NCBI GenBank assembly: GCA_963666565.1
Contig: OY762911.1
Location: 2,022,797-2,086,796, forward strand
DNA from: Thermoanaerobaculia bacterium
GTDB taxonomy: Bacteria; Acidobacteriota; Thermoanaerobaculia; Multivoradales; Multivoraceae
Direction: 5' to 3'
DNA: 64,000 nt
Positions 18,061 to 63,470 of the stretch are shown one piece after another. The notes under the pieces are model-generated. The model worked only from the letters and a program-made list of their open reading frames with translations, had not been told where the DNA came from and did no database searches. The translations under genes were made by a program, and so were the position numbers. Every line of letters starts with the position of its first letter. The first letter of the stretch is position 1.

Positions 18061-18100
18061 CGCCCGCTGGGTGCGCGGGTCTTCCGACCCGCTGCCGCCG
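18061..18100. repeat. REP-like hairpin element (core GCGGGTC TTCC GACCCGC)
   Basis: Member of a dispersed repeat family; paired in inverted orientation with 18235-18273 in the oxidoreductase/sulfatase divergent intergenic region. Confidence 0.6.
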
Positions 18101-18234
18101 GAGGCGGCCGGAGAGACGCGCCGGCCGGAGGCTGCCTCCGCTCCAGCGCCGGCCGCGCCGGCCGCGGCTGGTGCGGTCGCCGGGCGTTCGCCAGCGGCCC
18201 TTCGTCCGGGCTGCACCGCTCCGCGGCGCCGCCC

Positions 18235-18273
18235 GTGGGCGGGTCGGAAGACCCGCGCACCCAGCGGGCGGCC
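18235..18273. repeat. REP-like hairpin element (inverted partner)
   Basis: GGGTCGGAAGACCCGCGCACCCAGCGG. Confidence 0.6.
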
Positions 18274-18315
18274 CATGCCCGTCAGCGCCGCGCCGGCTGC
18301 TACCGTGGCCGGCGG

Positions 18316-19899
18316 ATGAAGTCGGTCGGACATCGGGGACCGTTTGCCGTTCTCGCTTCGGCGGGTCTAGCCGCCTGCTTCGTCGGATGCGTCGCCGACA
18401 TGCCCGCCGAGCCCGCGGCGGCCCCCAACATCGTCTTCCTGCTGGTCGACGACCTGGGCGCCATGGACATCGGTGCCTTCAACCCGGACACCTTCTACGA
18501 GACGCCGAACATCGACCGGCTCGCGGCCGGCGGGGTGCGCTTCACCCGAGGCTACGCCGCGAATCCGGTGTGCAGCCCAACCCGCTTCAGCATCATGACC
18601 GGCCGGTACCCGACCCGGGTGGGCGCGACGAACTACTTCGCGGGCCGGCGGCAGGAGAAGTACGCGCCCGCTCCGCTCAACGACCGGATGCCGCTCGCGG
18701 AGTACACGCTCGCCGAGGCGCTGCGCGACGGCGGCTACCGCACGGCATTCCTGGGCAAGTGGCACCTGGGGCCGACGGAGGAGTTCTGGCCGCTCGCCCA
18801 GGGCTTCGACGTGAATGTCGGCGGCCATCGGGGCGGCATGCCGCGGAGCTACTTTTCGCCCTACTCGAACCCGACGCTTCAGGACGGCCCCGAGGACGAG
18901 CACCTGACGGCGCGGCTGACCGACGAGGCGCTCGCCCTGCTCGACGGCTACGCGGCGGACGAGGAGGGCAGGCGCTTCCTGCTCTACCTTTCGTACTACA
19001 CGGTCCACACACCGCTCGTGGCGCCGGCGGACCTGATCGCGAAGTACGCCGCCAAGGCAGGCGTCGAGGTCGGCGTGTCGGAGAAGCCGCCGGGCCGCGT
19101 GGCCGGCTATCCCGCCGACCCCGCCGATTTCGGCGACGAGGAGCAGATCTGGCCGCGCGACGAGCCGCGCCGGGTGCGCGAGGTGCAGAACCACGCGGTC
19201 TACGCGGCGATGGTGGAGACGCTGGACACGAGCGTCGGCCGCATCCTCGACCGCCTCGACGCCCTGGGTCTGGCCGAGAACACGATCGTCGTCTTCTTCT
19301 CCGACAACGGCGGCCTGTCCACCGCGGAGGGGGCGCCGACCTCGAACCTGCCGCTCCGCGGCGGCAAGGGCTGGCTCTACGAGGGCGGCATCCGCGAGCC
19401 GACGATCGTCCGCTGGCCTGCCGTGGCCCCGGCGGGCGCCGCGACGGCGGCCCCCGTCATCAGCATCGACTTCTACCCGACCTTGCTGGAGGCGGCCGGC
19501 GTCGACCAGCCGGCCGGCGTCGAGATCGACGGCGTGAGCTTCGTGGACGTGCTCCGCGGCGGCGACGCGGGTACGGCGGCTGCCGCCGCGGCCGCCGAGC
19601 GCGACCTGTTCTGGCACTACCCGCACTACGGCAACCAGGGAGGCTTCCCCGGCGGCGCGATCTCACGGGGTCGCTACAAGCTGATCGAGCGCTACGAGGA
19701 CGGCCAGGTCCACCTCTACGACCTGGAGAACGACGTTGGTGAACGGAAGGACCTGGCCGCCGAGCAGCCCGAGCGGGTCGCCGAGATGCGAGCGCGGCTC
19801 CACGCCTGGTACGGCGAAGTCGGCGCCGAGTTCCTGAGCGCCCTGCCGGATGGCCCGGGACCCTGGCAACCGTCGGTGCAGGCCGGGGACGGCGGTTGA
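18316..19899 (+). CDS. Sulfatase (arylsulfatase family), lipoprotein signal
   Basis: NIVFLLVDDLG and CSPTRFSIMTGRYP (the Cys target of formylglycine modification); GKWHLG motif. Confidence 0.85.
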   Translation: MKSVGHRGPFAVLASAGLAACFVGCVADMPAEPAAAPNIVFLLVDDLGAMDIGAFNPDTFYETPNIDRLAAGGVRFTRGYAANPVCSPTRFSIMTGRYPTRVGATNYFAGRRQEKYAPAPLNDRMPLAEYTLAEALRDGGYRTAFLGKWHLGPTEEFWPLAQGFDVNVGGHRGGMPRSYFSPYSNPTLQDGPEDEHLTARLTDEALALLDGYAADEEGRRFLLYLSYYTVHTPLVAPADLIAKYAAKAGVEVGVSEKPPGRVAGYPADPADFGDEEQIWPRDEPRRVREVQNHAVYAAMVETLDTSVGRILDRLDALGLAENTIVVFFSDNGGLSTAEGAPTSNLPLRGGKGWLYEGGIREPTIVRWPAVAPAGAATAAPVISIDFYPTLLEAAGVDQPAGVEIDGVSFVDVLRGGDAGTAAAAAAAERDLFWHYPHYGNQGGFPGGAISRGRYKLIERYEDGQVHLYDLENDVGERKDLAAEQPERVAEMRARLHAWYGEVGAEFLSALPDGPGPWQPSVQAGDGG

Positions 19900-21524
19900 G
19901 CCGGCGCTACACGCCTCCGGGCCACCATCGCACCGTCGGGGCTTTCCGGGAGCATCTGCACGGCCTCGACACCGCGTTCGACTGTGCCGGCGAGTTGCTA
20001 GGCCCGGATGGGCCGCTGGCGAAGCCGCTCACAGTGTTCGGCCGCGAAGTCGGGAACCGGTTCGCGATCCATCCGATGGAGGGCTGGGACGGCAAACGGG
20101 ACGGCAGCCCGAGCGATCTGACTCTGCGGCGCTGGCGGCGGTTCGGGCTGAGCGGGGCGAAGCTGGTCTGGGGCGGGGAGGCGGTGGCGGTGGTCCCGGA
20201 AGGGCGCGCGAATCCGAACCAGCTCTTCATCGACGGCGAACGGCTGGCCGACTGCGTTGCTTGGCTTGAGACGCTTCGCCGGGAGATCCTGGCGGGGCAC
20301 GAAGAGAGCGGCGCCGGCGGCGAGCGGCCGGTCGTCGGCCTCCAGTTGACCCACTCGGGGCGTCTTTCCCGTCCCGATCCGCCGCCCGCGCCGCCGCGGC
20401 CGTTGCGGGCGCAGGTCCATCCCGTGCTCGACGCGCGGCTGGGCGAGGCCGCGAACCGGCCCCTCGTGACCGACGAGCAACTGGAGAAGATCGCCGGCGC
20501 CTACGTGCGGGCGGCGCGCTGCGCCGAGCGGGCAGGGTACGACTTCGTCGACGTCAAGTGCTGCCACGGCTATCTGCTGCACGAACTGCTCGGCGCTCGC
20601 ACCCGGCCGGGCCGCTACGGCGGGGCGTTCGAGAACCGGGTGCGGCTGCCGCTTGAAATCGTCGCGGCGGTGCGCGCCGAGTGTCCCGGTCTTGGGGTCG
20701 GCGTCCGTCTGTCGGTCGGAGACGTGGCGCCGTTCGTTGCGGACGAGAGCGGCGTCGGGATCCCGCAAGAACCGGGAGCGCCGAGCCGCGAAGTCGCACC
20801 CGGCGTCGCGGAGGGATTGTCGCCGCTTCGCGGCGCGTCTCCGTCAGAAGCCGGCGGGGACGCCGGCGCACCCGGTGTGAGGCGCATGGATCAGGGCCGG
20901 AACGCTGACCCCACGGCAGGTGCATCCGGTCCGGCGGCCGCGCTACCTGCTGCCGGCCTGGGCTTCGGCATCGACCGCTCGAACTGCGCTTTGCCCGAAG
21001 CCACCTGCGCCGAGGCGATTCGCTACATTGACCTGCTGATCGAGGCTGGAGTCGAAGTGGTCAACGTGACGATGGGTTCGCCCTATAGTTGCCCGCACCT
21101 GTCGCGACCGTTCACGTATCCGGCGTCGGACAGCTATCTGCCGCCGGAGGATCCGCTGCGTTCGGTGCTGCGTCAACTCGCCGCCGTGCGCACGGTGCGC
21201 ACGGCGTTCCCGCGACTCCCCCTGGTGGGGACGGGCTACAGCTACCTGCAGGAGTGGCTGCCCTACGTCGCCGAGGCGGAGGTCGGGGCCGGTCACGTCG
21301 ACTTCGTCGGCCTGGGCCGGATGGTGCTGGCCTACCCGCGCCTGCCGGCCGACGTTCTGGCGGGCCGGCCGCTCGAGCGGCGCCGGATTTGCCGGACCTT
21401 CAGCGACTGCACCACGGGACCGCGCAACAACATGGTCAGCGGCTGCTACCCGCTGGACGAGCGCTACCGGGAGTCCCCCGAGTTCGCCCGGATCAAGGAG
21501 ATCAAGAAGGCGGTGGCCTCGTGA
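19896..21524 (+). CDS. NADH:flavin oxidoreductase (Old Yellow Enzyme family) with about 80 aa low-complexity insertion
   Basis: CCHGYLLHELLG active-site region and TIM-barrel OYE motifs; the inserted Pro/Gly/Ala-rich segment (about residues 285-365) contains a REP-like sequence. Confidence 0.7.
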   Translation: MSRRYTPPGHHRTVGAFREHLHGLDTAFDCAGELLGPDGPLAKPLTVFGREVGNRFAIHPMEGWDGKRDGSPSDLTLRRWRRFGLSGAKLVWGGEAVAVVPEGRANPNQLFIDGERLADCVAWLETLRREILAGHEESGAGGERPVVGLQLTHSGRLSRPDPPPAPPRPLRAQVHPVLDARLGEAANRPLVTDEQLEKIAGAYVRAARCAERAGYDFVDVKCCHGYLLHELLGARTRPGRYGGAFENRVRLPLEIVAAVRAECPGLGVGVRLSVGDVAPFVADESGVGIPQEPGAPSREVAPGVAEGLSPLRGASPSEAGGDAGAPGVRRMDQGRNADPTAGASGPAAALPAAGLGFGIDRSNCALPEATCAEAIRYIDLLIEAGVEVVNVTMGSPYSCPHLSRPFTYPASDSYLPPEDPLRSVLRQLAAVRTVRTAFPRLPLVGTGYSYLQEWLPYVAEAEVGAGHVDFVGLGRMVLAYPRLPADVLAGRPLERRRICRTFSDCTTGPRNNMVSGCYPLDERYRESPEFARIKEIKKAVAS

Positions 21525-26968: not shown

Positions 26969-27012
26969 TCGCAGCCGCGAGAGGCTGTGCTGGCGCGCGT
27001 GGAATGGCCAGT

Positions 27013-27070
27013 GCGGGTCGGAAGACCCGCGCACCCAGCGGAAGCCGGCGCACCCGGTGTGCGGCGAGTC
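27013..27070. repeat. REP-like hairpin element plus GCCGGCGCACCCGGTGTGCGGCG submotif
   Basis: GCGGGTCGGAAGACCCGCGCACCCAGCGG followed by a second recurring motif also seen at about 20850 and 16445. Confidence 0.55.
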
Positions 27071-28036: not shown

Positions 28037-28075
28037 CCCGCTGGGTGCGCGGGTCTTCTGACCCGCCTTCGGTGA
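28037..28075. repeat. REP-like hairpin element
   Basis: CCCGCTGGGTGCGCGGGTCTTCTGACCCGCC; inverted partner at 28180-28215. Confidence 0.55.
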
Positions 28076-28179
28076 AGCCCCGAAGCGGCGCAGTCCGTAT
28101 GACGGGGCGGCCGGCCGCAGGCCGGCGACAATCGCGGAGCCGGCCTTGGGGGCCGGCGCGTTCTTCTGGCCGCCTCCGG

Positions 28180-28215
28180 CGGCAGCGGGTCGGAAGACCC
28201 GCGCACCCAGCGGAC
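28180..28215. repeat. REP-like hairpin element
   Basis: GCAGCGGGTCGGAAGACCCGCGCACCCAGCGG. Confidence 0.55.
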
Positions 28216-29070: not shown

Positions 29071-30036
29071 ATGACGCTGGCGGCTGCCGGCTGGCGCCGC
29101 GCCCTCGCTCCGGGCTATCGGAGCGGACTCGTCCTGGTGCTCCTCGGCCTGTGCGTGGTCTTCGGACTCGTAACCGACCACTTCTGGAGCGCGCTGACCT
29201 TCCGCACGCTGGCGAACCAGTTGCCGCCGCTGGTGGTGGCGTCGGCCGGACTGACCCTGGTGCTGATCGCCGGCGGCATCGACCTCTCGGTCGGCTCCGT
29301 GCTGGCGCTGGCGGCGGCGGTTCTGGGCGTGCTGACGGTCGATCAGGGGCTGCCGCTGGTGGCGGCGGCGCTGGTTGCGCTCGTCGTCGGCGCGCTCTGC
29401 GGCGCGATCAACGGCGCCCTCGTGGCGCGCTGGTCCATTCCGTCCTTCCTGGTCACGCTCGGCATGCTGGAGATCGCCCGCGGCTCGACCTATCTCGTCA
29501 CCGCGTCGCGGACGAGCTACCTGGGCGACCGCGTCTCGGTTCTCGGCGCGGCGACGCCGGTGCTCGGGCTCTCCGCGGCGTTCATCGGCTCGCTCGCGCT
29601 GGTCGGCGCGCTGCAGTTCGTCCTCTCGCGCACGGCCTTCGGGCGATGGGTGTTCGCGGTGGGCGGCAACCGGGAGGCCCTGCGGCGTTGCGGCGTTCGC
29701 CCCGCGCGCGTCCAGTTCGCGGTGTTCACGCTCGCCGGTTTGCTGGCGGCCGTCGCCGGGCTGTGCCAGGTCGGCTACCTGCAGTCGGCCGATCCGAACG
29801 CGGCCATCGGAATGGAACTGTCGGCCATCGCCGCGGTCGTCATCGGCGGCACGTCGCTCATGGGCGGGCGGGGGTCCGTCGCGGGCACCTTGCTCGGCGT
29901 GCTCGTGATCGCCGTGCTGCAGACGGGCCTCGCCCAGGCCGGCGCCACGGAGCCGACGAAGCGGATCATTACCGGCGCCGCGATCCTGCTGGCGGTGGCT
30001 ACGGACATGTGGCGGCGCCGCCGCGTGCGGCGGTAA
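29071..30036 (+). CDS. Sugar ABC transporter permease (RbsC-like)
   Basis: 8-10 TM helices and the ribose/branched-chain permease family signature. Confidence 0.85.
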   Translation: MTLAAAGWRRALAPGYRSGLVLVLLGLCVVFGLVTDHFWSALTFRTLANQLPPLVVASAGLTLVLIAGGIDLSVGSVLALAAAVLGVLTVDQGLPLVAAALVALVVGALCGAINGALVARWSIPSFLVTLGMLEIARGSTYLVTASRTSYLGDRVSVLGAATPVLGLSAAFIGSLALVGALQFVLSRTAFGRWVFAVGGNREALRRCGVRPARVQFAVFTLAGLLAAVAGLCQVGYLQSADPNAAIGMELSAIAAVVIGGTSLMGGRGSVAGTLLGVLVIAVLQTGLAQAGATEPTKRIITGAAILLAVATDMWRRRRVRR

Positions 30037-30165
30037 GGTCGCCGCTCCGCGGCGCGTTCTCTCAAGGCGGGTCGGAAGACCCGCGCACCCGGCGGCGGTA
30101 AGGCCGTCGCTTCGCGGTGCGTTTTCTCAAGCGGGTCGGAAGACCCGCGCACCCGGCGGCCGTTC
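30033..30165. repeat. Tandem duplication (about 62 bp x2) carrying two REP-like hairpins
   Basis: GGTAAGGnCGnCGCTnCGCGGnGCGTTnTCTCAAGnCGGGTCGGAAGACCCGCGCACCCGGCGGC repeated head-to-tail. Confidence 0.6.
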
Positions 30166-31440: not shown

Positions 31441-31560
31441 CAAGACTGGGTGCGCGGGTCTGCCATCCGTGCGCCCGATGACGGCCGCACGGACCGGTTC
31501 ACGGCTGGCGCGGTTCGCGCCACCCGGGTGCCTGGCCCGCTGCCGGGTGCCTGACCCGCT
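31441..31560. repeat. Composite REP-like element (degenerate hairpin plus CCATCCGTGCGCCCGATGACGnnCGCACGGA submotif)
   Basis: Shares an extended composite with 35176-35340; located between convergent genes. Confidence 0.5.
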
Positions 31561-31571
31561 GCCGGTGGCGC

Positions 31572-32669: not shown

Positions 32670-32678
32670 TTCCTCTGA

Positions 32679-32795
32679 GTGCGCGGGTCCTCCGACCCGC
32701 CGCCGCCGAAGGCGGCCTCCGAACCGTACATCCGCTGGGTGCGCGGGTCTTCCGACCCGCTGCCGCCGAAGGCGGCCTCCGAACCATCGCCGGCT
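32679..32795. repeat. Two tandem REP-like elements
   Basis: GTGCGCGGGTC(C/T)TCCGACCCGC(C/T)GCCGCCGAAGGCGGCCTCCGAACC x2. Confidence 0.6.
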
Positions 32796-35175: not shown

Positions 35176-35340
35176 AAGTCTGACGCCAGTCACTGGGTGC
35201 GCGCGGGTCGTCTGACCCGCTGCCGCCGAACACTGGGTGCGCCGGGGTGCCATCCGTGCGCCCGATGACGAGCGCACGGATGGCTCGCGCGTGGCGCGGG
35301 CCGCGCCACCCGGGTTCTCGCCAGTTTCCGAAGAAACGCG
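35176..35340. repeat. Composite REP-like element (two degenerate hairpins plus shared CCATCCGTGCGCCCGATGACG..GCGCCACCCGGG tail)
   Basis: Homologous to 31441-31560; between convergent genes. Confidence 0.5.
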
Positions 35341-39760: not shown

Positions 39761-39890
39761 CGCCGCCGACCGCCGCGCATGCCGGGTCCGTTGACGGCGA
39801 AGAACTGCGGCATATCTGCGCTCGCCAATGCTCAGGCCGAGCTACCAGTCATGCGCCAGGTTCCAGCCAGCTCCAGCGAGTCGTAGTCCT

Positions 39891-41067: not shown

Positions 41068-41158
41068 CCGATCGGCCTGGGTCGCTCAAGGGTCTCGTCC
41101 GGGATCGTGACCTTCCCCCGGCGAAGCTAGGGGAACGCGTGCGCGGGGAACGGGTCGC

Positions 41159-41503
41159 CTACTGGCACGGAAACGCCGTGATGTCCGACTTCGTGGTGGC
41201 GGTCGCGCCCTGCGGGTTGCCGTGCGTCCAGCGGCTGCCGTCGGGTCCCGTAATCCACAGGTTGAAGTCCAGGGTCGTCACCGGCGCCACGAACGCCCAG
41301 CGGTGGCCGTTGACTTGGCAACCGTCGAGCACCTTGACGAGAACCTCGGGGTTGTTGCGGCCGAAGAACCACAGAATGCCGGCCTCGCTGGACCAGGCTT
41401 CGGCCTTGACCGGGCCCGACTCGCCCTCTTGCGTGACGTAGCACATGCTGACCTCGAAGCCGCCGTCGAAGCGGAGGGCCACGGTCGTGGGCGTGCAGGT
41501 GCC
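41159..41503 (-). repeat. Dispersed about 340 bp repeat copy 1 (encodes the shared four-Cys domain)
   Basis: About 80 percent nucleotide identity to 44893-45231 and 48054-48392. Confidence 0.7.
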
Positions 41504-43060: not shown

Positions 43061-43198
43061 GGCCCAGACCCTCCTTCGTTGGTGCCCGGCCCCGGCAAGG
43101 GGCTTCATCGTCGGGATCGCGCCGCTCTTCAGCCGACCCGATGCCGACTCTTCCAACGATGGTAGTGGACTTGGCCTCAATCGGAGACTCGGCGGCCC

Positions 43199-44629: not shown

Positions 44630-44766
44630 CTGCGCCCACGAGGGCGCCGCGAACGGCAGTGCCGAAGCGAAGAGGGCAAGGAACCCGCGCCAGACTGAAC
44701 GGCCGTACTCGGAGCCAGTGAACGTGCTTGACGGCCGCGGTCGGTCGTGGTGGTTGTCCGGGAGTA

Positions 44767-47340
44767 TCAGGGCACTCTCTCCCCTCGTTCCGACTGCGCC
44801 GAGATGCGAAGAACCGCGGCGCCGGTGTTGCCCGTCACATCCACTTTCCCGTCATCATCGCCGTCCCCGTCGTCGTCATCATCCTCGTTCGCGCACTGGA
44901 ACGCGTTCGTGTCGCTCCTGGTCGAGGCCGTCTGGCCTTGCCGATTGCCGTGCGTCCACCGGGTGCCGTCCGGGCCCGTTATCAAGAGATTGAACTCCAG
45001 GGTCGTGACCGGCGCCACGAACGCCCAGCGGTGTCCGTTGTGCTTGCAGCCGTCGAGCACCTTGACCAGAACTTCCGCGTTGCCCCGGTCGAAGAACCAC
45101 AGGATGCCGGACTGGCCGGATGCCCAGACGCCGGACCTGGCCTGGCCCCCGTCTCCGTCGGGCGTGCGGTAGCACATGCTGACCTTGTAGCCGCCGTCGA
45201 ACTGAAGCGCGGTCGTCGTCGGCCTGCAGCCCATGGTCGGCGGAGCTGGGCGGTCACCTTCCCGAACCACGCGGATGTCGTGACCGGAAGGCGCCAGCAC
45301 CAACTCGTAGCGGTTGCCCCGCCAGGTGAACGGCCTGTCGGGGAGGAGCGCACCAGGCCTCGTCCTGTTTCCGTCCACGTCTTCGGTGAAGTCGCACTCG
45401 TTCAGCCAGCCGTTCCGGTCGAGGTCGAGGCAGACGAAGTCCTTGTCGTCCTCGGGCAGCGCGTCAGATGGGGAGTCGAACCGTCCGTCGCCGTTCCCAT
45501 CGACAGCCAGCGCCAGCAGCCGCCCTCCCGACGGCAGCTCGACTTCGCCCCTCCAGACGCTGGACGGGCCGTACACGAGACCGTTCGACAAGTCGCCGCG
45601 CTGGGCGGACATCGTAATGGCGTAGGGCAGGACCAGCCCCGACGCATAGGGCACTTCCAGAACCGCCCCGGTTGTCCCCACAGCCCACGGACGCTCCGTG
45701 TTCCACGCCGTGAGCAGCGGCGGTCCGTCGTCGGTGAGATTTCGGTTCCTGTTCCGATCAACCCAAACGCGGATGAACCGGTTCTGGAAGTACGACGAGT
45801 AGTACCCACTCGCCGCGAACCGTTCGACATCGCAAAGCTGAGGCAGGAGCACCGTCGGGCAGGACTCGGGTCTCCTATGGCTGTCGACGAGGATCTCGAA
45901 CCGGCCTCCCGCGTCTCCAAGCTCAAGAAACTGGTAGGACGCCGAGTCTCCCCGAACTGCCGGATAGACCACGTCGGATGGCCGACTTGCATGAACCTGT
46001 ACCCGCTGAGTGATGTGGAGGCCGGTGTAGCCGCTCAGCCTGCCGTTTCGGCTCACGAAGGCGAGTCCGCGGCCGTCCGTGTTGTCGTCCATCCGGTCCC
46101 CGATGCCGTCGCCGTCCGTGTCCCGCTGCTCCCGCGGGTTCAGAGGGAAGGCGTCCGCGGCGTTACTCACGCCGTCGCCGTCGGCGTCCCGGTCCAGTGC
46201 GTCGGCGATGCCGTCACCGTCCGTATCGCGCCAGTCTCGGTGGTCCAGAGGCAGAGCGTCGATGAAGTCCGGTGCTCCGTCGCCGTCGTCGTCAAGGTCG
46301 GTCCGATTCGGCGTGCCGTCGCCGTCAGTGTCGTTCGCGGTCCCTGGGCGCGCCAGCGCGGCGCCGGACGACAGCCACTCGAAGATCTCTCTCGGGGGCG
46401 TGTCGCCAGACGAGCAGTGACCGCCGGGCGCATCCAGATCCGCGCGGGTTTCCAGGCCCAGCCAGTCTGAGTAGTACCTCGCCATCGACTCGGCGTCCTG
46501 ATGCAGGAAGTCTCCCGTCGTGGCTTCCACGAACACGCGAAAGCGCTCCCTCACGAACTGGGCGGCGAATGGGGTCCACTGAAACGAGGGCCTCCACGGT
46601 GCGTGGTGGAACGGCGGAGCGACGGCGTAGGTGTCGTGCGAGGCGTCGCCGTCGAAATCCAGCCAGAAGCACCCGCAATGCGCGTGAAAGCCACCGCCGT
46701 AGCTGCCGCCGTAGAACTCCATGAACTGCGCCAGGAAGCAAGTGCCCTGGGAGCCGCCGGCGAAGACGATTCGGTCGTGGTCGAGAGCAAGCCGCGACTT
46801 CAGGTTGTTCTGGAGCAGTTCATGGATCAGGCGCGCGTCTTCGCCTTGCCAGAACCGGGTTCCTCCCGCGCCGACTGCTTCGGGGAGCAACGTGCGTTCA
46901 CCGAATGAGATCTCCTCCGGCACCGAGTTGGGAGACGCCGGCACGATCAGCGCCAGCCCAAGATCCAGAGCCGTATCGACGTGCTGGTACCTGGGCTGCC
47001 GCAGCTCCTCGGCCGTTCCCCTGTTGTTCCCGTGGAAGAAAACGACCGCTCCGCGAGGCGTCGTCGGATCCCAGCCGCTCCTCACCCAGTACCGGTAGAG
47101 GAGAGTCCGGCCGGTGGAATCGGTGAACGAGTCATCGTGCCATACCGTGGACTGCCCTTGGACGGCGCCGGAAGCGGCGAGGAGCGCAACTGTCAGCGCC
47201 CAACGTCGTCGTCCGAGTCTCCGAGTCAGCGCCTGCCGGGAGAGTCGCATCAGTTCTGCACAGTCCGCCAGGGTCGTCCCCATCGCTTGTTCTCTCACCT
47301 TTTGCCGCCCTTCGATGGATGCACGGGATTCAACTCGCAC
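44767..47340 (-). CDS. Secreted multidomain protein: alpha/beta-hydrolase (GGSQG serine esterase), thrombospondin type-3 Ca-binding repeats, unknown middle region, shared four-Cys domain, acidic tail
   Basis: Signal peptide; VVFFHGNN...FAGGSQGTCF; DTDGDGxxD TSP3 repeats x4-5; C-terminal domain about 90 percent identical to that of 47388-48953. Confidence 0.65.
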   Translation of the reverse strand: MRVESRASIEGRQKVREQAMGTTLADCAELMRLSRQALTRRLGRRRWALTVALLAASGAVQGQSTVWHDDSFTDSTGRTLLYRYWVRSGWDPTTPRGAVVFFHGNNRGTAEELRQPRYQHVDTALDLGLALIVPASPNSVPEEISFGERTLLPEAVGAGGTRFWQGEDARLIHELLQNNLKSRLALDHDRIVFAGGSQGTCFLAQFMEFYGGSYGGGFHAHCGCFWLDFDGDASHDTYAVAPPFHHAPWRPSFQWTPFAAQFVRERFRVFVEATTGDFLHQDAESMARYYSDWLGLETRADLDAPGGHCSSGDTPPREIFEWLSSGAALARPGTANDTDGDGTPNRTDLDDDGDGAPDFIDALPLDHRDWRDTDGDGIADALDRDADGDGVSNAADAFPLNPREQRDTDGDGIGDRMDDNTDGRGLAFVSRNGRLSGYTGLHITQRVQVHASRPSDVVYPAVRGDSASYQFLELGDAGGRFEILVDSHRRPESCPTVLLPQLCDVERFAASGYYSSYFQNRFIRVWVDRNRNRNLTDDGPPLLTAWNTERPWAVGTTGAVLEVPYASGLVLPYAITMSAQRGDLSNGLVYGPSSVWRGEVELPSGGRLLALAVDGNGDGRFDSPSDALPEDDKDFVCLDLDRNGWLNECDFTEDVDGNRTRPGALLPDRPFTWRGNRYELVLAPSGHDIRVVREGDRPAPPTMGCRPTTTALQFDGGYKVSMCYRTPDGDGGQARSGVWASGQSGILWFFDRGNAEVLVKVLDGCKHNGHRWAFVAPVTTLEFNLLITGPDGTRWTHGNRQGQTASTRSDTNAFQCANEDDDDDGDGDDDGKVDVTGNTGAAVLRISAQSERGERVP
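44893..45231 (-). repeat. Dispersed about 340 bp repeat copy 2
   Basis: About 95 percent nucleotide identity to 48054-48392. Confidence 0.75.
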
Positions 47341-47387
47341 AGAGCCTCTGTCGGGTCGTCGTCATGCGGCGGCTCCCTCGCGGCCCT

Positions 47388-48953
47388 CTACCTCCTGGTC
47401 TCTACCCAGGTACCGGCCGTAACCGTTCTCCCTTCGATCCGGCAGGTGCTCGCGTCGCATGTGTACCGATAGGGACGCCTCTCGACGTAGCCGTTCCGAG
47501 AACAGCGCACGTTCGTTTTGCCACCGGAGTTGCTGAGGGAACACCTCGACAACCCGCCGTTGAGGCTCCACGAATCCGAGGGCAACGTCGTAATGACGTC
47601 ACCGACGTTGTACCTGGTTCCCGACCCGCCGCCGCCGCTGACCGTCACGCGGACGCCGCTGGAACAGTTGTTGCCGGTGTTCGATTCGCCCGACACGGAA
47701 TCCACGCAGGCGCCGTAGTAGTACGTGCCCGCGCTGGACGGCGCCGTCAGGCTGATCGACTCGGCACTGGAGCTCGAGGCGGAGAGGACACCGACCGAAT
47801 CCGTGCCGACCTGCGTGTCGGAGGTGCCGATGCTGGAGTTCGACGAGCGGTAGTAGCGCAGCGTCGTGGCGGCGGAGCGACCGTCGCCCTGGTTGCGCAC
47901 CGTGGCGCGGAGCGTGAAGCGGTCGCCCGCGCTGAGGCTGCTGTCGCTGACCGACGGGCTCGACACCACGAGGTCGGGCGCCGACGTTGGTTCGTCATCG
48001 TCCCCGTCATCATCACTGTCGTCCCCGTCATTGTCGTCATCACCATCGGTCGCGCAAGCGAACGCTCTGTTGTCGCTCTTGGTCGAAGCCGTCTGGCCTT
48101 GCCGGTTGCTGTGCGTCCACCGCTTGCCGTCCGGTCCCGTGATCCAGAGGTTGAACTCCAGGGTCGTGACCGGCGCCACGAACGCCCAGCGGTGTCCGTT
48201 GTGTGTGCAACCGTCGAGCACTTTGACCAGAACTTCCGCGTTGCCCCGGTCGAAGAACCACAGGATGCCGGACTGGCCGGATGCCCAGACGCCGGACTTC
48301 GCCTGGCCCACGTCCCCAGCGGGCGTGCGGTAGCACATGCTGACGTCGTAGCCGCCGTCGAAGCGGAGCGCCGTTGTCGTGGGCCTGCAGCCTGCGGTTG
48401 GCGGGGGGTCGGGATCGGGATCCGGCGGCTGACTTTCTTCGGACGTTGCGCGCACTTCGCATCCGGTGGGCGTTGCTCCAGAGACCGTCCCGGTCATGTG
48501 GAAGGTCCTGGTCTGGTTGGCCTCCATCCTCCCGAGGAGCTGATTGCCTATCTGGCGCCGCCCCGGCTCGATATAGCCCCGTACCCTGACGTTCCTGACG
48601 GACCGTTGGGCCGTCACGCTCCCGCCGATGGTCGCGTTCCAGGTGCTGCCGGCGGTCTGGTCAGCCCTGCAGGTCGTGACGCGGCCGGTCAAGGCCGGGC
48701 CGGACGCTGCTGCATGGACGGATTCGGTGTCACCGGCGGCGGCATTGACGAACACCGTGCTCGGTGCGGCGTGCAGAGGCACTTCCCAGGCAACAAGTTC
48801 CCGGTCCTGCTGAGCGGCCGATGGCGCCGAAACGGCCATGGTCAACGCCATCAGCGTCAGCAGGACGGCGGGTCGAGGAACGCGAACGCCTCCGGCTCCG
48901 TTCCCTCCGCGGGTCTGGCGCTTCTGGCTCGGGCCGATCATTGTGTTGTTCAT
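47388..48953 (-). CDS. Secreted multidomain protein: unknown N-domain, PDPDPD linker, shared four-Cys domain, poly-acidic linker, CARDB-like domain, Cys-containing C-terminal domain
   Basis: Signal peptide; CARDB-like region LVVSSPSVSDSSLSAGDRFTLRATVRNQGDG; shared domain GCRPTTTALRFDGGYDVSMCY...AFAC. Confidence 0.6.
   Translation of the reverse strand: MNNTMIGPSQKRQTRGGNGAGGVRVPRPAVLLTLMALTMAVSAPSAAQQDRELVAWEVPLHAAPSTVFVNAAAGDTESVHAAASGPALTGRVTTCRADQTAGSTWNATIGGSVTAQRSVRNVRVRGYIEPGRRQIGNQLLGRMEANQTRTFHMTGTVSGATPTGCEVRATSEESQPPDPDPDPPPTAGCRPTTTALRFDGGYDVSMCYRTPAGDVGQAKSGVWASGQSGILWFFDRGNAEVLVKVLDGCTHNGHRWAFVAPVTTLEFNLWITGPDGKRWTHSNRQGQTASTKSDNRAFACATDGDDDNDGDDSDDDGDDDEPTSAPDLVVSSPSVSDSSLSAGDRFTLRATVRNQGDGRSAATTLRYYRSSNSSIGTSDTQVGTDSVGVLSASSSSAESISLTAPSSAGTYYYGACVDSVSGESNTGNNCSSGVRVTVSGGGGSGTRYNVGDVITTLPSDSWSLNGGLSRCSLSNSGGKTNVRCSRNGYVERRPYRYTCDASTCRIEGRTVTAGTWVETRR
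48054..48392 (-). repeat. Dispersed about 340 bp repeat copy 3
   Basis: See copies 1 and 2. Confidence 0.75.
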
Positions 48954-49098
48954 GGTGACCGTGTCTCCTTGGTCCGGTTGGCCGCCAGGTCTCCTGCCCT
49001 TCCGCCGTCAACACCCGGCGATTTGCCGCGACGGACGCGCGCTTCGCGTTTACCGAAGACGCGCTCTTCATCATGCTCGTCAGCCTACGACGGACGCG

Positions 49099-49130
49099 GC
49101 TTGTAGTGCCGAGGAGAAACGTGTAGCCGG
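49099..49130 (-). promoter_or_regulatory. Conserved upstream motif CTTGTAGT-N14-ACGTGTAGC (copy 2)
   Basis: Upstream of the first gene of the minus-strand cluster (start 48953); see copy 1. Confidence 0.35.
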
Positions 49131-49151
49131 TCGCGGTGGCGCGGCAGCCGG

Positions 49152-51845
49152 TCAGGAGTCGCCGGGGATCAGGCCCATGTCCCAGGCCCGCCGGACGGCC
49201 TCCGCCCGATTGCGGGTGCCGAGCTTGGCGAAGATGCTCCGCAGGTTGTACCTCACGCCATGCGTCGTCAGACCCAGTTCGGCGGCGATCTCCTTGTCGC
49301 GGCGACCCGGCAACCGGTGCAGCACTTCAAGTTCGCGCTCGCTGAGCGACGGCGCCGAACCATCGTCCGCGTCGCACATCGCCAGGAGCGAACGGGCGGC
49401 TGGCCGGTGGGAGGCGTCCGCGCCGAGCTCGAGGTACATCCGCAACGCGTCCGCGCAGGTTGCCTGGTCCCGCACCAGGGGCCAGGCGTAGGGCGACTCG
49501 ACGAACAGCCTTAGGTACTCCGTCAGATGCCGCAGGCTCGCCTGGGTGTCGCCGGCCTGCTGTTCCAGCGAGACGGACAGCGCCAGGGCGCGCATCTCGA
49601 CGGTGCGGAGGCCCAGCTCGGCCGCAACCGAGCGTAGCCGGCGCAGCAACGAGCGCCCTTCCTCCCACCGTCGGCCCGCGATCGACAATCGGGCGCGAGC
49701 TTCCGAAACGGCCTCCATTTCCCTCCAGCTCTGAGCCGTCAGATCCACGCAGTCCTCAGGCTCCTCCGGCAACGCCTCCCGCCGCCAGGCGCGCTCGGCT
49801 TCCGTCGTGCGGCCGGCGATCGCCAGCACCGATATCCGGAGCGCGACGATCAGTCTCAGGAAGGCGGTCAATCCGGCCCTGCGTGAACGAAGCACCAGCT
49901 TGTCTGCCACGGCGAGAGCCTCTTCGACCTGTCCGGACCCGAGTCTGGCGCCGATCAACACGTTGCTGGCCGTTGCGAAGTACGAGAAGGGCACGCCGTG
50001 GCGCGTCAACACGCTCAGTACGCCGGGCGGGTTGGCGGCTGCCGAAGCCGGGTTGCATTCCAGGGCGATTTCGTGCCGCACGAGATCGCAGCTCGTGGTC
50101 GCCGTGGGATCGAGCATGAAGCACTTCCTGGCAATCCGCCGTGCTCTGCGGCAGTGTGCCCGGGCGTCCCGTGGCCGGCCCCTCACGAAGTCGATCTGGC
50201 CATGCAGGATTCCTCCGTACAGCGCGATGTAGTCGGTACCGGTGGACTCGAGCGCCGCGGAGAGCGTGTCGAGAGCGTCGGCGAACTCTCCCTTCAGAAA
50301 GTGGAGGATGCACAGCCCGTACTCGAACCCGCCGCGCTTGGCCGGGGCCAGATCCGCATCCGCCGTCAGCCGGGCGATGTCGCGAAGCAGGGCCTCCGAC
50401 GAGTCCGACCCGACGGGAGATATCCCGTACAGGGCCAGGCAGAAGCGAGCGGTGAGATGCTCCAGGCGGTAGCGGAAGTCGTCCTCGTCGTCGCTGGCGG
50501 GGACAGGACGGGGACACGTCCGGTAGAGATCCCGAGCTTGGTCGCCACGTCCGGTAAGCGCCAGCGTGACGCATCTGAGGAGCTTGAGTCGCGGCGATTC
50601 GGCGACGACAGCCTCGCTCAACAGGCGGTTCGCTTGCTGCAACTCCGGGACGCCGTTGCGCATCCACAAGCGTACCCCGCCCGCCTGTTCGGCAATCCGA
50701 CCGGCGAGGAACGGATCGCGCCCCTCGATCGCGTGGCGCATGGCCGCTATCGTCTCGCGGCGTTTCGCCAGGGCGGCGGCGATGCGCCGATGGATGGCGG
50801 CGAAGCGTTCCGGGTCTTCGCGAAGCCGCCTGGCGGCGCAGTGCTCTCGCACCAGCGGATGCAGCCGCCAGCGCCGGGTTTCGCCGTCGCTCAGCGGCTC
50901 AAGCAGCCCGGTCAGCGCGGCCATCGACTCGAAGCGGCGCATCGAGTCGTTTCGTTGCAGGACTTCGTCCAACAGCGCCGCGTCGGTCCAGTCGAGCAGG
51001 GACATGTCCAGAACGAAGTCCCGGTCGCCGCGCCCGAGAGGCGCGAACAGGCGGGACTCGATCCAGTTTCCGAGGAAGCCATGCCCACTGTCGCGGTCGT
51101 CGTGCGCTTCGTGTTGCATACCGTTGCGGGCAATGCGCAGTGCGACCGGCCATCCGGCTGAACGGTCGATCTCTCTCGCCAGGGCTCGGCGGGAAAGGCG
51201 GAGACCGAAGAACCTGGCCACCTCCGCTCGGGAGAACCTCAGGTCTTCGGTTTCCACGGCCTCCGCGTGGCCCGCCAGCAGGGGACTGGCCACATCGAGG
51301 CCGTCCGGGATCTCCCGGCCCGCCAAAGCCAGGTGCAGATTGGAGGGGCCGCGTTGCAGGAGCAACGTCAGGAGCGGGACGGAGGCGGGATTCAGACGCT
51401 CCAGCTCGTCGAACGCAATGACGAAGGGTCTTCCGAGGGACTCGATTCCGTGCAGAACGGTGCCGATCCGGCTCGCCGGTCCAGCGCGCGTTTCCCTCAC
51501 GGGCGGCACGTCGCCCAGGTTCAACCCGGCCTCGGCGCAGGCGAAGGCGATGTAAACGTCGAGTACGCCGGGCTCGTCGTTCTCGTCCAGCGAAATCCAG
51601 GCCGTGGCGACCCCGTCCCGGCGGACTCGGCGGCAGCACTCCGCCATCAGGGTCGTCTTCCCGAAACCGCCGGAGGCCCTCAGCACCGAGAGCTTGCGGC
51701 GCGTGGGCAGCGCCCGCTTCTCGAGTTCCGGCCGGCTGAGGTAGCCGGCCACCCTGTCCGGGATCGCGACCTTCCGCCGCAGCAGCCAAGGGAACGCGCG
51801 CGCGGGGAAGGACTCCGCGGGCATTCCTCGCGACGCTCCGGTCAT
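49152..51845 (-). CDS. Large ATP-binding LuxR-family transcriptional regulator (LAL / MalT-like)
   Basis: N-terminal P-loop (GGFGKTTL), long helical/TPR-like middle, C-terminal LuxR HTH (LSERELEVLHRLPGRRDKEIAAELGLTTHGVRYNLRSIFAKLG). Confidence 0.8.
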   Translation of the reverse strand: MTGASRGMPAESFPARAFPWLLRRKVAIPDRVAGYLSRPELEKRALPTRRKLSVLRASGGFGKTTLMAECCRRVRRDGVATAWISLDENDEPGVLDVYIAFACAEAGLNLGDVPPVRETRAGPASRIGTVLHGIESLGRPFVIAFDELERLNPASVPLLTLLLQRGPSNLHLALAGREIPDGLDVASPLLAGHAEAVETEDLRFSRAEVARFFGLRLSRRALAREIDRSAGWPVALRIARNGMQHEAHDDRDSGHGFLGNWIESRLFAPLGRGDRDFVLDMSLLDWTDAALLDEVLQRNDSMRRFESMAALTGLLEPLSDGETRRWRLHPLVREHCAARRLREDPERFAAIHRRIAAALAKRRETIAAMRHAIEGRDPFLAGRIAEQAGGVRLWMRNGVPELQQANRLLSEAVVAESPRLKLLRCVTLALTGRGDQARDLYRTCPRPVPASDDEDDFRYRLEHLTARFCLALYGISPVGSDSSEALLRDIARLTADADLAPAKRGGFEYGLCILHFLKGEFADALDTLSAALESTGTDYIALYGGILHGQIDFVRGRPRDARAHCRRARRIARKCFMLDPTATTSCDLVRHEIALECNPASAAANPPGVLSVLTRHGVPFSYFATASNVLIGARLGSGQVEEALAVADKLVLRSRRAGLTAFLRLIVALRISVLAIAGRTTEAERAWRREALPEEPEDCVDLTAQSWREMEAVSEARARLSIAGRRWEEGRSLLRRLRSVAAELGLRTVEMRALALSVSLEQQAGDTQASLRHLTEYLRLFVESPYAWPLVRDQATCADALRMYLELGADASHRPAARSLLAMCDADDGSAPSLSERELEVLHRLPGRRDKEIAAELGLTTHGVRYNLRSIFAKLGTRNRAEAVRRAWDMGLIPGDS

Positions 51846-51888
51846 TCGGCGATCTTACCGGGGACGCCTACTGCTAGATTGCCCGCCC

Positions 51889-53559
51889 ATGAGCGACTGG
51901 CATCACGCGGACATTCTCGAAGCGATCGCCCGGCACCAGCCGGAGGCGCCGGCGCAAGCCTTCGTCGATCCCCTGGGCGGCGAACCGGCGCGCCGCTACT
52001 CGCAGGCCGAGCTGCACCGTCGCGCGAACGGCGTCGCGGCGACGCTGATCGCGCGCGGCGCGAAGCGCCAGGACAAGGTTGCACAGTACCTCTACAACGT
52101 GCCGGAGTACCTGGAGTCCGTCCTCGCCTGCTTCAAGGCGTCGCTGGTGCCGGTGAACACGAACTACCGCTACGTGGAGAGCGAGCTCCTCTACCTGTGG
52201 GACAACGCCGACGTCGTGGCGGTTGTCTTCCACGGCTGCTTCGCCTCGCGGATCGCGGACCTGCGGGCGAAGATGCCGGCGATCCACACTTGGCTGTGGG
52301 TCGACGACGGCTCGGGTCCCTGCCCCGAGTGGGCGATCCCCTACGAGCAGGCGGCCGCCGCGGCGTCCGGCGAGCCCGGCGACTCGCTGGCCTTCGAGGC
52401 GCCTTGGCCGCGCAGCGGCGACGATCTGTGGCTGCTCTACACCGGCGGCACGACCGGCATGCCGAAGGGCGTCATGTGGCGGCTCGACGACCTCTGGCTG
52501 CTCGGCAACGAAGGCCGGCCCGAGCCGTTCGACCTCTCGGGCGGCGTCGAGGGCCTCGTGCCCCAGTTCGACGAACTCCTCATGCGGCGCGTCTCGCTTC
52601 CCGCCTGCCCGCTGATGCACGGCACCGGCTTCCTCACCGCGCTCGGCGGCATGTTGAACGGCGGCACGGTGATCACCCTGGCCAACCGCCGCTTCGACGC
52701 GGTCGCGACCCTCGAGGCGATCACCGGCGAGAAGATCAACGGGATGGCGATCGTCGGCGACGCGTTCGCCAGGCCGATGGTGCGGGCGCTGGAGGCGGAA
52801 CCGGACCGCTTCGATCTCTCCAGCCTGGAGGCCGTCGTCTCCTCCGGCGCGATGTGGAGCGCCGAGGTCAAGCGGGCCTTCCTGCGGTTCTGCCCGCCGG
52901 AGACGATCCTGACGGACAGCCTCGGGTCGTCCGAGTCGATCGGCATGGGCCGTTCGGACTCGACCGCCGGCGAGGAGAGCGAAACGGCCTCCTTCGTGCT
53001 CGGCGACAACGCCTGCGTCATCGACGACGACGGCAACAAGGTCGAACCGGGCTCGGGCGTGCTCGGCCGCATCGCCGTGACCGGTCACATCCCGCTCGGC
53101 TACTACAAGGACCCCGAGAAGACCGCGGCCATATTCACCGAAGTCGACGGCGTCCGCTACTCGATGGCGGGCGACTACGCCACCGTCGAGGCGGACGGCT
53201 CCCTCAAGCTCTACGGCCGCGGCTCCGTGTGCATCAACAGCGGCGGCGAGAAGATCTTCCCCGAGGAGGTCGAGGAAGTGCTGAAGACCCACCCTTCGGT
53301 CCGCGACGCGGTGTGCGTCGGCGTGCCGGACGAGCGCTTCGGTCAGGCGGTGACGGCGGTCGTCGAGCTGGACGACGCCGCCCGCTTCAGCGAGCCGGAC
53401 GTCATCGGCTGGGTCAAGCGGGAACTGGCGTCCTACAAGGCGCCCAAGCGCGTCCTGGTGCGGGACAGCGTGGGCCGGGCCGCGAACGGCAAGGCCGACT
53501 ACAACGGCCTGCGCGAGTGGGCGGTCGGCGAGCTCGCCGCGGGCGAGGCGGCGCCGTGA
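51889..53559 (+). CDS. Acyl-CoA synthetase (AMP-dependent synthetase/ligase)
   Basis: LYTGGTTGMPKGV AMP-binding motif; C-terminal GEKI and K..PK motifs. Confidence 0.85.
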   Translation: MSDWHHADILEAIARHQPEAPAQAFVDPLGGEPARRYSQAELHRRANGVAATLIARGAKRQDKVAQYLYNVPEYLESVLACFKASLVPVNTNYRYVESELLYLWDNADVVAVVFHGCFASRIADLRAKMPAIHTWLWVDDGSGPCPEWAIPYEQAAAAASGEPGDSLAFEAPWPRSGDDLWLLYTGGTTGMPKGVMWRLDDLWLLGNEGRPEPFDLSGGVEGLVPQFDELLMRRVSLPACPLMHGTGFLTALGGMLNGGTVITLANRRFDAVATLEAITGEKINGMAIVGDAFARPMVRALEAEPDRFDLSSLEAVVSSGAMWSAEVKRAFLRFCPPETILTDSLGSSESIGMGRSDSTAGEESETASFVLGDNACVIDDDGNKVEPGSGVLGRIAVTGHIPLGYYKDPEKTAAIFTEVDGVRYSMAGDYATVEADGSLKLYGRGSVCINSGGEKIFPEEVEEVLKTHPSVRDAVCVGVPDERFGQAVTAVVELDDAARFSEPDVIGWVKRELASYKAPKRVLVRDSVGRAANGKADYNGLREWAVGELAAGEAAP

Positions 53560-54622: not shown

Positions 54623-55144
54623 CTACCCGGCCCGTTTCGGCGTGCTGAACCAGTCCAGCCGGCCGGAGTACGGCTCGATCTCGCTCCAGGACGCGACGTC
54701 GAGGTGTACGCAGGCCGCCGCCGCGGTGACGAACCGGGGCGGCTCGTCGCCGGTGAGCCGCCGGACCAGTTCCGCGCAGGTCGGCTGGTGGCCGACGATG
54801 AGGATCGAGTGCGCGTCGTCGGACTGCCCGCCGAGCAGGTCGATCGCGGCGCCCGGCGAGGCGAGGTAGAGCGCCGGTTCCAGGATCGTCGTGCGGTTCC
54901 AGTCCCCGGCGGCGACCGCCAGATCGATCGTCTGCCGTGTGCGCACCGCCGTCGAACAGAGGATTCGGTCGGGCACGGCCTGCCGCTCCGCGAACCGGCG
55001 GCCCATCTTCCGGGCCGCCTTGACGCCCCGGGCGTTCAGCGGCCGCTCGTGGTCGACCCCGCCGTAGGCGGCGGTCCAGTCCGACTTCGCATGCCGCAGC
55101 ACGTAGAGGACCCGCACCGGGCCACGGTAGCAGCGTTCGCGCAT
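54623..55144 (-). CDS. Histidine phosphatase family protein (SixA-like)
   Basis: LYVLRHAKS RHG motif; short phosphohistidine-phosphatase-like fold. Confidence 0.7.
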   Translation of the reverse strand: MRERCYRGPVRVLYVLRHAKSDWTAAYGGVDHERPLNARGVKAARKMGRRFAERQAVPDRILCSTAVRTRQTIDLAVAAGDWNRTTILEPALYLASPGAAIDLLGGQSDDAHSILIVGHQPTCAELVRRLTGDEPPRFVTAAAACVHLDVASWSEIEPYSGRLDWFSTPKRAG

Positions 55145-55177
55145 GGAACGGCTCGCTGCTCTCCCTCCGCCTCCGGC

Positions 55178-55215
55178 GGGAGCGGGTCAGAAGACCCGCG
55201 CACCCAGCCTGTGGC
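55178..55215. repeat. REP-like hairpin element
   Basis: GCGGGTCAGAAGACCCGCGCACCCAGCC in a divergent intergenic region. Confidence 0.5.
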
Positions 55216-60544: not shown

Positions 60545-60592
60545 GGCGGCAAGTCTACCGCCAGAGGCGGAGGGGCGTAGACTCCGGGCTGG

Positions 60593-63007: not shown

Positions 63008-63045
63008 CTCGCCGGGTGCGCTGGGTGCGCGGGTCTTCCGACCCG
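63008..63045. repeat. REP-like hairpin element
   Basis: GCTGGGTGCGCGGGTCTTCCGACCCGCATCCGG. Confidence 0.55.
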
Positions 63046-63099
63046 CATCCGGGCCAAGCCGCGGAGCGGCGTCGGTCGCTGCCGCCCGGACGGGGAGCG

Positions 63100-63180
63100 G
63101 AGGGAGGGTCCCATCGGCCGCGGCATCCGGGCGTCCGCCAGCGGACGCCCGGGCTGCGACGCATGTGGCGCGGGGACGCG
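63100..63180. repeat. Two additional perfect palindromes (CCGGGCGTCCGC-CAG-CGGACGCCCGG and CATGTGGCGCG-GGGA-CGCGCCACATG)
   Basis: Stem-loops visible in a repeat-rich intergenic region. Confidence 0.5.
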
Positions 63181-63280
63181 CCACATGGGTGCGCGCTTTC
63201 CCGGTAGAGGGAAAGCTGGCGCTCGCTTCGGTCGACTGCGCTCCGCCGCGTCGGCGGTCGATGGAAGGTCATTGGCAGTC

Positions 63281-63378
63281 GCTTGTCTTCAGCCCGCCGG
63301 GACCCTCCCCCCGGACTCCCGTCGCAGACTGGGCTGTGGTGGGCGTCGCTTGCCTCCAGCCCGCTGGGACCCTCCCTC
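63281..63378. repeat. About 30 bp direct repeat x2 (CGCTTGyCTyCAGCCCGCyGGGACCCTCCC)
   Basis: Direct repeats separated by about 36 bp. Confidence 0.5.
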
Positions 63379-63419
63379 CGCTCCCCGTCCGGGCTGGACG
63401 CCGGCTGGGTGCCTGGGTA

Positions 63420-63470
63420 CGCGGGCCGCTGGGTGCGCGGGTCTTCTGACCCGCCCCCCGGGGCGACGCC
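63420..63470. repeat. REP-like hairpin element
   Basis: GCTGGGTGCGCGGGTCTTCTGACCCGCC. Confidence 0.55.

Follow-up and report, generated by a model that had tools for sequence, protein, structure and literature searches.

A family of REP-like hairpin repeats in Thermoanaerobaculia (Acidobacteriota) and its probable RAYT transposase partner

The stretch analysed here, called the window below, comprises 64,000 nt of the genome of a Thermoanaerobaculia bacterium (Acidobacteriota; contig OY762911.1 of assembly GCA_963666565.1, positions 2,022,797 to 2,086,796). The spacers between its genes carry a family of GC-rich hairpin repeats whose structure, distribution and possible relationship with a REP-associated tyrosine transposase (RAYT) are the subject of this work, REP standing for repetitive extragenic palindrome. 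Genes were called from the G+C content by codon position (the G+C content of the window being 66–75%) and 20 of them were checked against Pfam. The 18-mer GCGGGTCGGAAGACCCGC, which is a GCGGGTC-GGAA-GACCCGC palindrome, was found 13 times in the window with up to two mismatches, while 0.07 occurrences were expected from dinucleotide-preserving shuffles; likewise, the 18-mer formed by the 3′ stem half and the adjoining tail (GCACCCAGCGG) gave 14 matches vs 0.74 expected. An nhmmer profile built from all copies identified 13 strong copies and one half copy (31446–31461), with no core copy in the regions 1–18 kb and 36–55 kb of the window. The consensus consists of a core, GCGGGTC-RGAA-GACCCGC, followed by the tail GCACCCAG(CGG). 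A previous reading of this DNA, made from the sequence only, had reported the hairpin at a dozen or more intergenic sites; the 14 positions it listed were all right, and each core copy lies between genes, the neighbouring genes being backed by Pfam matches. Together with two units of a sister subfamily, these elements represent about 1.9% of the window. They are arranged as follows, types A and B differing in the accessory hairpins described afterwards:

18058–18273, both strands: head-to-head (REPIN-like) doublet of a type-A unit (18064–18136, −) and a type-B unit (18190–18267, +), with cores at 18064–92 (−) and 18239–67 (+)
27012–27043, + strand: solo core and tail (core 27013–41) between co-directional AlkZ-like and periplasmic-binding-protein genes
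28037–28214, both strands: head-to-head doublet of a type-B unit (28037–28116, −) and a type-A unit (28138–28214, +), with cores at 28038–66 (−) and 28185–213 (+)
30036–30159, + strand: two tandem type-B-like units (30036–30095 and 30103–30159; period 64 nt), with cores at 30067–95 and 30131–59, 3′ of an ABC permease gene
31445–31564, − strand: variant or degenerate half copy, with the 3′ stem half and tail at 31445–31464, in a convergent spacer
32670–32795, − strand: two tandem type-A units (32670–32727 and 32730–32795; period 60 nt), with cores at 32672–700 and 32732–60
35190–35242, − strand: degenerate type-A unit GCGGGTCAGACGACCCGC-GCGCACCCAGTG (core 35191–225) with a second tail copy at 35233–35242, in a convergent spacer
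55135–55208, + strand: solo type-A unit (core 55182–210) separating the divergent genes of a histidine phosphatase (−) and an S41 peptidase (+)
63017–63078, − strand: solo type-B unit (core 63018–46) starting 10 nt past the stop codon of a TonB-dependent receptor gene
63426–63492, − strand: solo type-B unit (core 63426–54) with additional tail-like pieces at about 63405–63425

The sequence-only reading was right about the inverted pairs at 18.07/18.25 and 28.05/28.19 kb, about those in tandem (30.07/30.13 and 32.68/32.74 kb) and about the peptides (W)VRGSSDP... and AG(R/Q)KTRAPSG, which are encoded by open reading frames (ORFs) that run through the repeats. Its statement that the sites are mostly convergent or divergent held for about half of them. 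Three sites are convergent (28.1, 31.45 and 35.2 kb) and two divergent (18.1 and 55.2 kb), the remaining four or five being co-directional (27.0, 30.1 and 32.7 kb, and probably 63.0/63.4 kb). The 18-kb doublet sits where a GFO/IDH/MocA oxidoreductase gene (−) and a sulfatase gene (+) diverge; its tails face outward and the inverted repeat extends to GGCCGCCCGCTGGGTGC... The solo copy at 27 kb is accompanied by a second tail-like piece, GCCGGCGCACCCGGTG, at 27045–27060. The 28-kb doublet fills the convergent spacer from the stop codon of the binding-protein gene to that of a TylF-like methyltransferase gene, and the 32.7-kb tandem pair lies between an enoyl-CoA hydratase and an FGE-sulfatase gene, both on the − strand. 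Finally, the half copy at 31.45 kb is preceded by a different hairpin module (..CCGTCATCGGGCGCACGGATGGCA..) and weak tail-like remnants reach 31564; a variant reading CACGGATGGCAG-(half stem)-GCACCCAG was also found in other loci. A recurring variant whose core has another hairpin upstream in place of its 5′ half (..CCGTCATCGGGCGCACGGATGGCA-(3′ half stem)-GCACCCAG) was observed at 31445–31500 and 35233–35260 of the window and at about 7900–7960 of the related locus L043 (related loci are given L numbers throughout).

The alignment of 96 copies from the window and the related loci revealed that the 29-mer made of core and tail is just the constant end of larger units of about 60–80 nt, composed of one or two accessory GC hairpins, the core and the tail. 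Type-A units consist of a first hairpin (e.g., GTCGGCC-TTCG-GCCGGC), about 8 nt, a second hairpin (GCCGCC-TNC-GGCGGC), an A, the core and the tail; in type-B units the core and tail are preceded by the module CGGGC-tgc-GCCGC-TCC-GCGGC-tcc-GCCCG and a g. In the module that is presumably recognised, a GC-rich hairpin (7-bp stem, 4-nt loop) adjoins an unpaired motif that does not vary. On one strand this motif lies 3′ of the hairpin and reads GCACCCAG(CGG); on the other it lies 5′ of it and reads (CCG)CTGGGTGC. Neighbouring units in the window and loci were arranged head-to-head 20 times, tail-to-tail 6 times and in tandem (head-to-tail) 12 times, with tandem periods of 33, 60, 64 and 73 nt. Head-to-head doublets are formed by a reversed A unit and a B unit with a common central hairpin, and they measure 134–143 nt (about 141 nt) from CCCAG to CCCAG. 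The folding energies proposed as a check in the sequence-only reading were in agreement with stable structures. The core alone folds with −9.4 kcal/mol as DNA, and head-to-head doublets form an outer stem of 29–36 bp around three small hairpins. The RNA fold of 18055–18275 reached −183.6 kcal/mol (z = −9.1), with an outer stem of 36 bp, and the doublet of L003 gave z = −9.4.

The repeat had been considered genome-specific, which did not stand: the exact 29-mer occurs in 35 other loci from about 10 species-level metagenome-assembled genomes (MAGs), under the labels Thermoanaerobaculia, 'Candidatus Multivorans', Acidobacteria bacterium COS3_bin_14 and Holophagales SB0670_bin_39, and sister subfamilies share its tail. 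The family is thus not confined to the window, and its core copies there, as stated above, are not situated in coding sequence. A 26-mer core is identical across these genomes. In the JGI metagenome collection only two contigs contained the family, and no match was found in the viral collection, so no phage link is indicated. Scanning of the window at Rfam gathering scores yielded no match, and tRNA and tmRNA genes were also absent from it. When the window and loci were considered together, 91 of the 101 copies fell outside genes according to crude calls with a coverage of 85% of the sequence, the other 10 being mostly at ORF edges or within read-through ORFs. No description of this repeat family was found in a literature search, and the supplement of PMC6006769 offered no acidobacterial REP sequences for comparison.

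Every GCACCCAG in 610 kb of sequence was taken without selection for pairing. A perfect 7-4-7 hairpin preceded 222 of the 276 occurrences, with six different stem sequences (GCGGGTC, GCGGACC, GCGGGCC, GCCGGCG, GCCGGCC and GCCGACG). Among the 61 distinct sequences, both the percentage of paired positions and the covariation score were above those of all 500 shuffles and all slid registers. These results indicate that the constant of the superfamily is the unpaired motif, whereas the sequence of the hairpin varies by subfamily. Two sister-subfamily units are present in the window:

16434–16481, + strand: intergenic unit with an accessory hairpin, GCCGGCG-AGGG-CGCCGGC and then GCACCCGGTGG
20766–20933, + strand: unit inside an Oxidored_FMN gene (19896–21524), with the hairpin GCCGGCG-GGGA-CGCCGGC at 20850–20867 and the tail GCACCCGG at 20868–20875

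The second of them reads in frame and gives a 55-residue insertion in the encoded old-yellow-enzyme-like protein, which is common to the window and L040 and absent from the L041, L043 and L044 orthologues.

The behaviour of the sites over time was studied in syntenic loci found by a homologue search with the permease gene at 29071–30036, as none of the loci from the exact-29-mer scan was orthologous to the window. The permease protein is 96% identical to that of the window in L040, 93% in L041–43 and 89% in L044–46. Over the same syntenic region of about 20 kb, 11 core copies are present in the window vs 3 in L040 and none in L041, L042, L044, L045 and L046, L043 showing a single match with five mismatches. 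One of these relatives' genomes (JAPVWO01) nevertheless bears exact copies elsewhere. The 18-kb doublet is missing from the orthologous spacers of L041 and L044. Where the binding-protein and TylF-like genes converge, the spacer has 180 nt with the doublet in the window vs 7 nt (TGAgcggacTCA) in L040, and this filled-empty junction is clean, any duplication being of 2 nt at most. The spacer of the 32.7-kb tandem pair is reduced to 10–13 nt in L040 and L041, and the 30-kb site contains a tail-to-tail pair in L040 and is empty in L041, L043 and L044. Polymorphic sites were also found outside this region. L015 has an additional 105-nt inverted unit with respect to L003, the flanks being 99.5–99.9% identical, and the outgroup L013 has the short form; 231 nt of L014 are missing from L002. 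At one orthologous site four genomes displayed four states: empty, single unit, tandem pair and doublet. No flanking direct repeats or target-site duplications were detected at 20 doublets. All these features support the REP/BIME-like reading proposed from the sequence (BIME, bacterial interspersed mosaic element): the repeats are extragenic GC-rich palindromes, they form inverted doublets and tandems, and they are gained and lost without target-site duplications.

The sequence-only reading had also suggested that the repeats may be targets of a RAYT and proposed a search for such a gene flanked by inverted copies. A phmmer search with E. coli RayT against all ORFs of the window and loci found nothing. 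A regular expression for the HUH motif, however, picked out an ORF that lies at one edge of L004 (chromosome OZ220742.1) and terminates in ..DWCVMPNHVHVLV. About 85 nt separate its start codon from the end of an upstream doublet, which is head-to-head and belongs to a sister subfamily (core GCCGGCC-AGAA-GGCCGGC, tail GCACCGAC). The corresponding 121-residue fragment had 745 homologues; the listed matches were nearly all PF01797, and many of the listed homologues are named 'REP element-mobilizing transposase RayT' by their sources. Against the NCBIfam model REP_Tyr_transpos (NF047646; cut-off 80 bits) the closest homologues scored 76.8–84.3 bits, P0121 being above the cut-off and three others just below it. 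The HUH histidines and the tyrosine of a Y-I-x-x-N-P-V motif align with those of E. coli RayT, and the PDB matches are ISDra2 TnpA and TnpA-REP (4ER8).

The surroundings of these genes link them to the repeats. In L052–54 the RAYT gene (10001–10606) lies between doublets at 9797–9940 and 10643–10784, both with the exact core and tail of the window, so the search for inverted copies around a RAYT was successful in related genomes. In L047 and L048 the RAYT gene is placed amid arrays of GCGGGTC and GCGGGCC copies. The RAYT of L049–51 (P0126) shares 63% identity with the query, and all the copies at its flanks have a GCGGACC/GGTCCGC stem and the same tail; this stem differs from that of the window by two compensatory pair changes. 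The RAYT genes of three RAYT lineages are each bracketed by a matching repeat variant. In addition, members of the P0124 RAYT cluster and exact 29-mer copies are found on the same 333,333-bp contig. L004, L047 and L052 have a common RAYT neighbourhood with dihydroxy-acid dehydratase, GFO/AKR and radical-SAM genes, which suggests vertical inheritance of the RAYT.

These repeats constitute a new family of an already well-known type of system, that of REP, BIME and REP-doublet-forming-hairpin (REPIN) elements with their RAYTs (TnpA-REP) in E. coli, Pseudomonas and Stenotrophomonas (PMC3116915, PMC3733652, PMC6006769; 4ER8). As in those bacteria, they are short GC-rich extragenic palindromes with a conserved unpaired flank, occurring singly, as inverted doublets and in clusters without target duplications, and persisting across the lineage while individual sites turn over. 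A Y1 HUH transposase gene is likewise bracketed by repeats (REPtron) and the hairpin variation tracks the transposase. Nevertheless, unlike in those systems, the host belongs to the Acidobacteriota (Thermoanaerobaculia, MAGs with sponge-type names), the unpaired motif has 8–11 nt (CTGGGTGC / GCACCCAG(CGG)) instead of GTAG/GTGG, and the units possess one or two accessory hairpins, giving a richer mosaic. The interior of the doublet is not self-complementary and contains three separate hairpins within the 29-bp outer stem. Moreover, REPs are usually described as species-specific, whereas the 26-mer core is here shared by about 10 species-level genomes. A system closer in taxonomic terms is the class 3 TnpA-Y1 or 'TIRYT' of Acidobacteria, of the same phylum, whose Y1 genes are flanked by atypical multi-copy hairpins or inverted repeats, with about 600 copies in Solibacter usitatus (PMC6006769, PMC3733652). 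For class 3, a CnGA foot of the hairpins and a Y----Q motif have been described; the system studied here has the foot CTGGGTGC, a Y-I-x-x-N-P-V motif and its best score against the RayT model.

Taken together, the repeat architecture, the extragenic bias, the turnover without target duplication, the REPtron in relatives and the hairpin variation that tracks the transposase make it very probable that the repeats are REP elements, mostly as REPIN/BIME-like doublets and tandems, acting as non-autonomous partners of a RAYT (HUH-Y1) of this Thermoanaerobaculia lineage. By analogy with E. coli TnpA-REP and the IS200/IS605 insertion sequences (IS; PMC6006769), the RAYT would bind the folded hairpin and its foot in single-stranded DNA, for instance at the replication fork, and its tyrosine would cut and rejoin the repeat DNA. 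Units or doublets would in this way be copied or moved, often beside existing units, giving rise to clusters. The stable hairpins, presumably transcribed with the neighbouring genes, could affect termination or mRNA decay, and the sequence identity among copies may make them substrates for recombination, deletion and inversion.

Several observations weigh against this interpretation. The foot is invariant but it is not the unpaired GTAG/GTGG (or CGTC) tetranucleotide of tagged REPs (PMC3733652, PMC6006769): it reads (CCG)CTGGGTGC, and no copies other than the 33-nt tandem ones of L009 and L028 have GTAG before the stem. Some changes between relatives resemble recombination or replacement more than a simple insertion: over about 25 nt the flank of L015 departs from that of L003, L013 shows a form collapsed to tail-core-tail, and at the 27-kb site L040 has a hairpin whose loop is flipped with respect to the window, with tails on both sides. 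The related loci were chosen for carrying the repeat, and the densities observed in them are consequently biased. A profile of these RAYTs found neither gene copy nor remnant in the window, and among the 35 exact-copy loci only L004 has one; the RAYT was thus seen in relatives, where its gene is bracketed by the same repeat, and a cognate RAYT in the window's own genome is what we infer from them. Its action on the repeats is argued from the analogy given above.

The best surviving alternative, which we consider improbable, is that the elements are structures selected by the host (factor-independent terminators, mRNA-stabilising hairpins or binding sites for nucleoid proteins or topoisomerases), spread and homogenised by recombination or gene conversion, with the RAYT being incidental. 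The extreme conservation of the 26-mer across species would fit this, as would the copies placed directly past stop codons and between cistrons and the recombinational appearance of several polymorphisms. However, most orthologous sites are empty in relatives whose genomes have the family at other places, which means that the element is not required at any particular site, and the orientation with respect to transcription is random (22 sense and 25 antisense copies in co-directional spacers). The latter figures argue against a strand-specific RNA function, and an orientation-dependent RNA role was disfavoured for this reason; both results together disfavour a purely host-selected terminator or stabiliser. 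In addition, the hairpins have no U-tract, some copies occupy divergent promoter spacers or even stand in frame within genes, and the RAYT genes of three lineages are bracketed by the matching variant.

Still less likely is that the repeats are miniature inverted-repeat transposable elements (MITEs), deletion derivatives of an IS moved in trans by a DDE transposase recognising the inverted repeats of 29–36 bp at the two ends of the doublet (about 141 nt). In favour of this, the doublets are uniform in length, end in long inverted repeats that are nearly perfect, and vary in presence among relatives; in this sense they are similar to MITEs of the Correia/NEMIS type, which have about 100–150 nt and long terminal inverted repeats, are intergenic and are co-transcribed with their neighbours. 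Correia elements generate TA target duplications and, to our knowledge, have no Y1 partner. Here, by contrast, neither target duplication nor DDE partner was seen: duplications were absent from the 20 doublets and from the clean filled/empty pair, and no IS or DDE transposase with these ends was found among the recurring protein families of about 476 kb (the window and the loci up to L046). The lack of duplications and of a parent IS disfavours a DDE-type MITE. Furthermore, single units, tandem arrays with the periods indicated above and tail-to-tail pairs are as frequent as doublets, and the gene that the repeat brackets encodes a Y1 transposase instead. An assembly or chance artefact of a 70% G+C genome, to which only the palindromic end around a doublet in the short contig L029 could point, as this may be due to the assembler, is refuted by the excess of copies over expectation and by the same family being present in independent assemblies, long-read chromosomes included, from many samples. 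Integron attC sites, CRISPR arrays and riboswitches were dismissed from the anatomy of the repeat (both orientations, no spacers, no fixed gene partner).

A bolder proposal can be made, which we regard as rather doubtful. This RAYT lineage may read its substrate through the unpaired motif of 8–11 nt (CTGGGTGC / GCACCCAG), fixed while the hairpin changes, unlike the GTAG-foot rule, and REP units may have been repeatedly taken up as translated in-frame insertions or interdomain linkers in enzymes. This last part recalls the Rickettsia palindromic elements (RPE) and the intragenic REPs, inasmuch as some units within genes are in frame, and their translation would give inserted peptides or linkers; RPEs are a CGTC-tagged group with no dedicated transposase known (PMC3733652), and unlike them most copies are here extragenic. 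If in-frame uptake were true, the repeat family would be a source of protein novelty in sponge-associated Acidobacteriota.

Apart from the Oxidored_FMN insertion, REP units were seen in frame inside long ORFs of L004 (3649–3746 and 1708–1736) and L052 (15820–15881 and 13771–13832). In both loci tail-to-tail pairs occupy the linker of a two-domain ORF of about 700 amino acids (aa), radical-SAM and methyltransferase-like; the linker of L047 is a different one, of comparable length and low complexity. In a single ORF of 697–764 aa, in-frame units also separate the GFO_IDH_MocA part from the aldo-keto-reductase part; these may be true fusions or read-through calls.

Other observations concern genes and segments close to the repeats. 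In L005 (3276–4160) an ORF of lower G+C content and about 195 aa, DJ-1/PfpI-like by eye, is located between two copies of one type-A segment of about 50 nt, while the orthologous site of L034 (3290–3471) has the doublet only, which suggests a gene insertion or a recombination at a REP. At 370–1209 of L017, REP units interrupt and flank the N-terminal fragment of what by eye is a phosphoglucosamine-mutase-like gene, probably a pseudogene within a patch rich in REPs. Sequences of a HicA/HicB toxin-antitoxin were found between the sulfatase and Oxidored_FMN genes of L041 (3774–4085), L045 (3481–4073) and L046 (2493–2825), with HicB only in L041 and L046; the pair is absent from the window and L040. 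Indels of 140–190 nt without the GCGGGTC core distinguish orthologous loci (L001 390–539 and 1317–1459; L027/L035 at about 740–2100) and may correspond to other small repeat families. In the window itself, the region 38000–52000 is a block of lower G+C content (0.66–0.68) with zero REP copies, and three similar segments of about 300 nt (41193–41471, 44892–45202 and 48053–48362) are the 5′ parts of paralogous genes, also present in L004 and L024.

The family described here extends the REP/REPIN-RAYT relationship to an uncultured lineage of Acidobacteriota. Its unusual fixed foot, combined with several hairpin variants, offers a natural series for asking what a RAYT reads. In practical terms, the elements create spurious ORFs and read-through gene fusions and mark indels, duplications and gene insertion, so gene calling and comparative work on these MAGs should mask them, and site occupancy, which differs sharply even among close relatives, could provide markers for strains.

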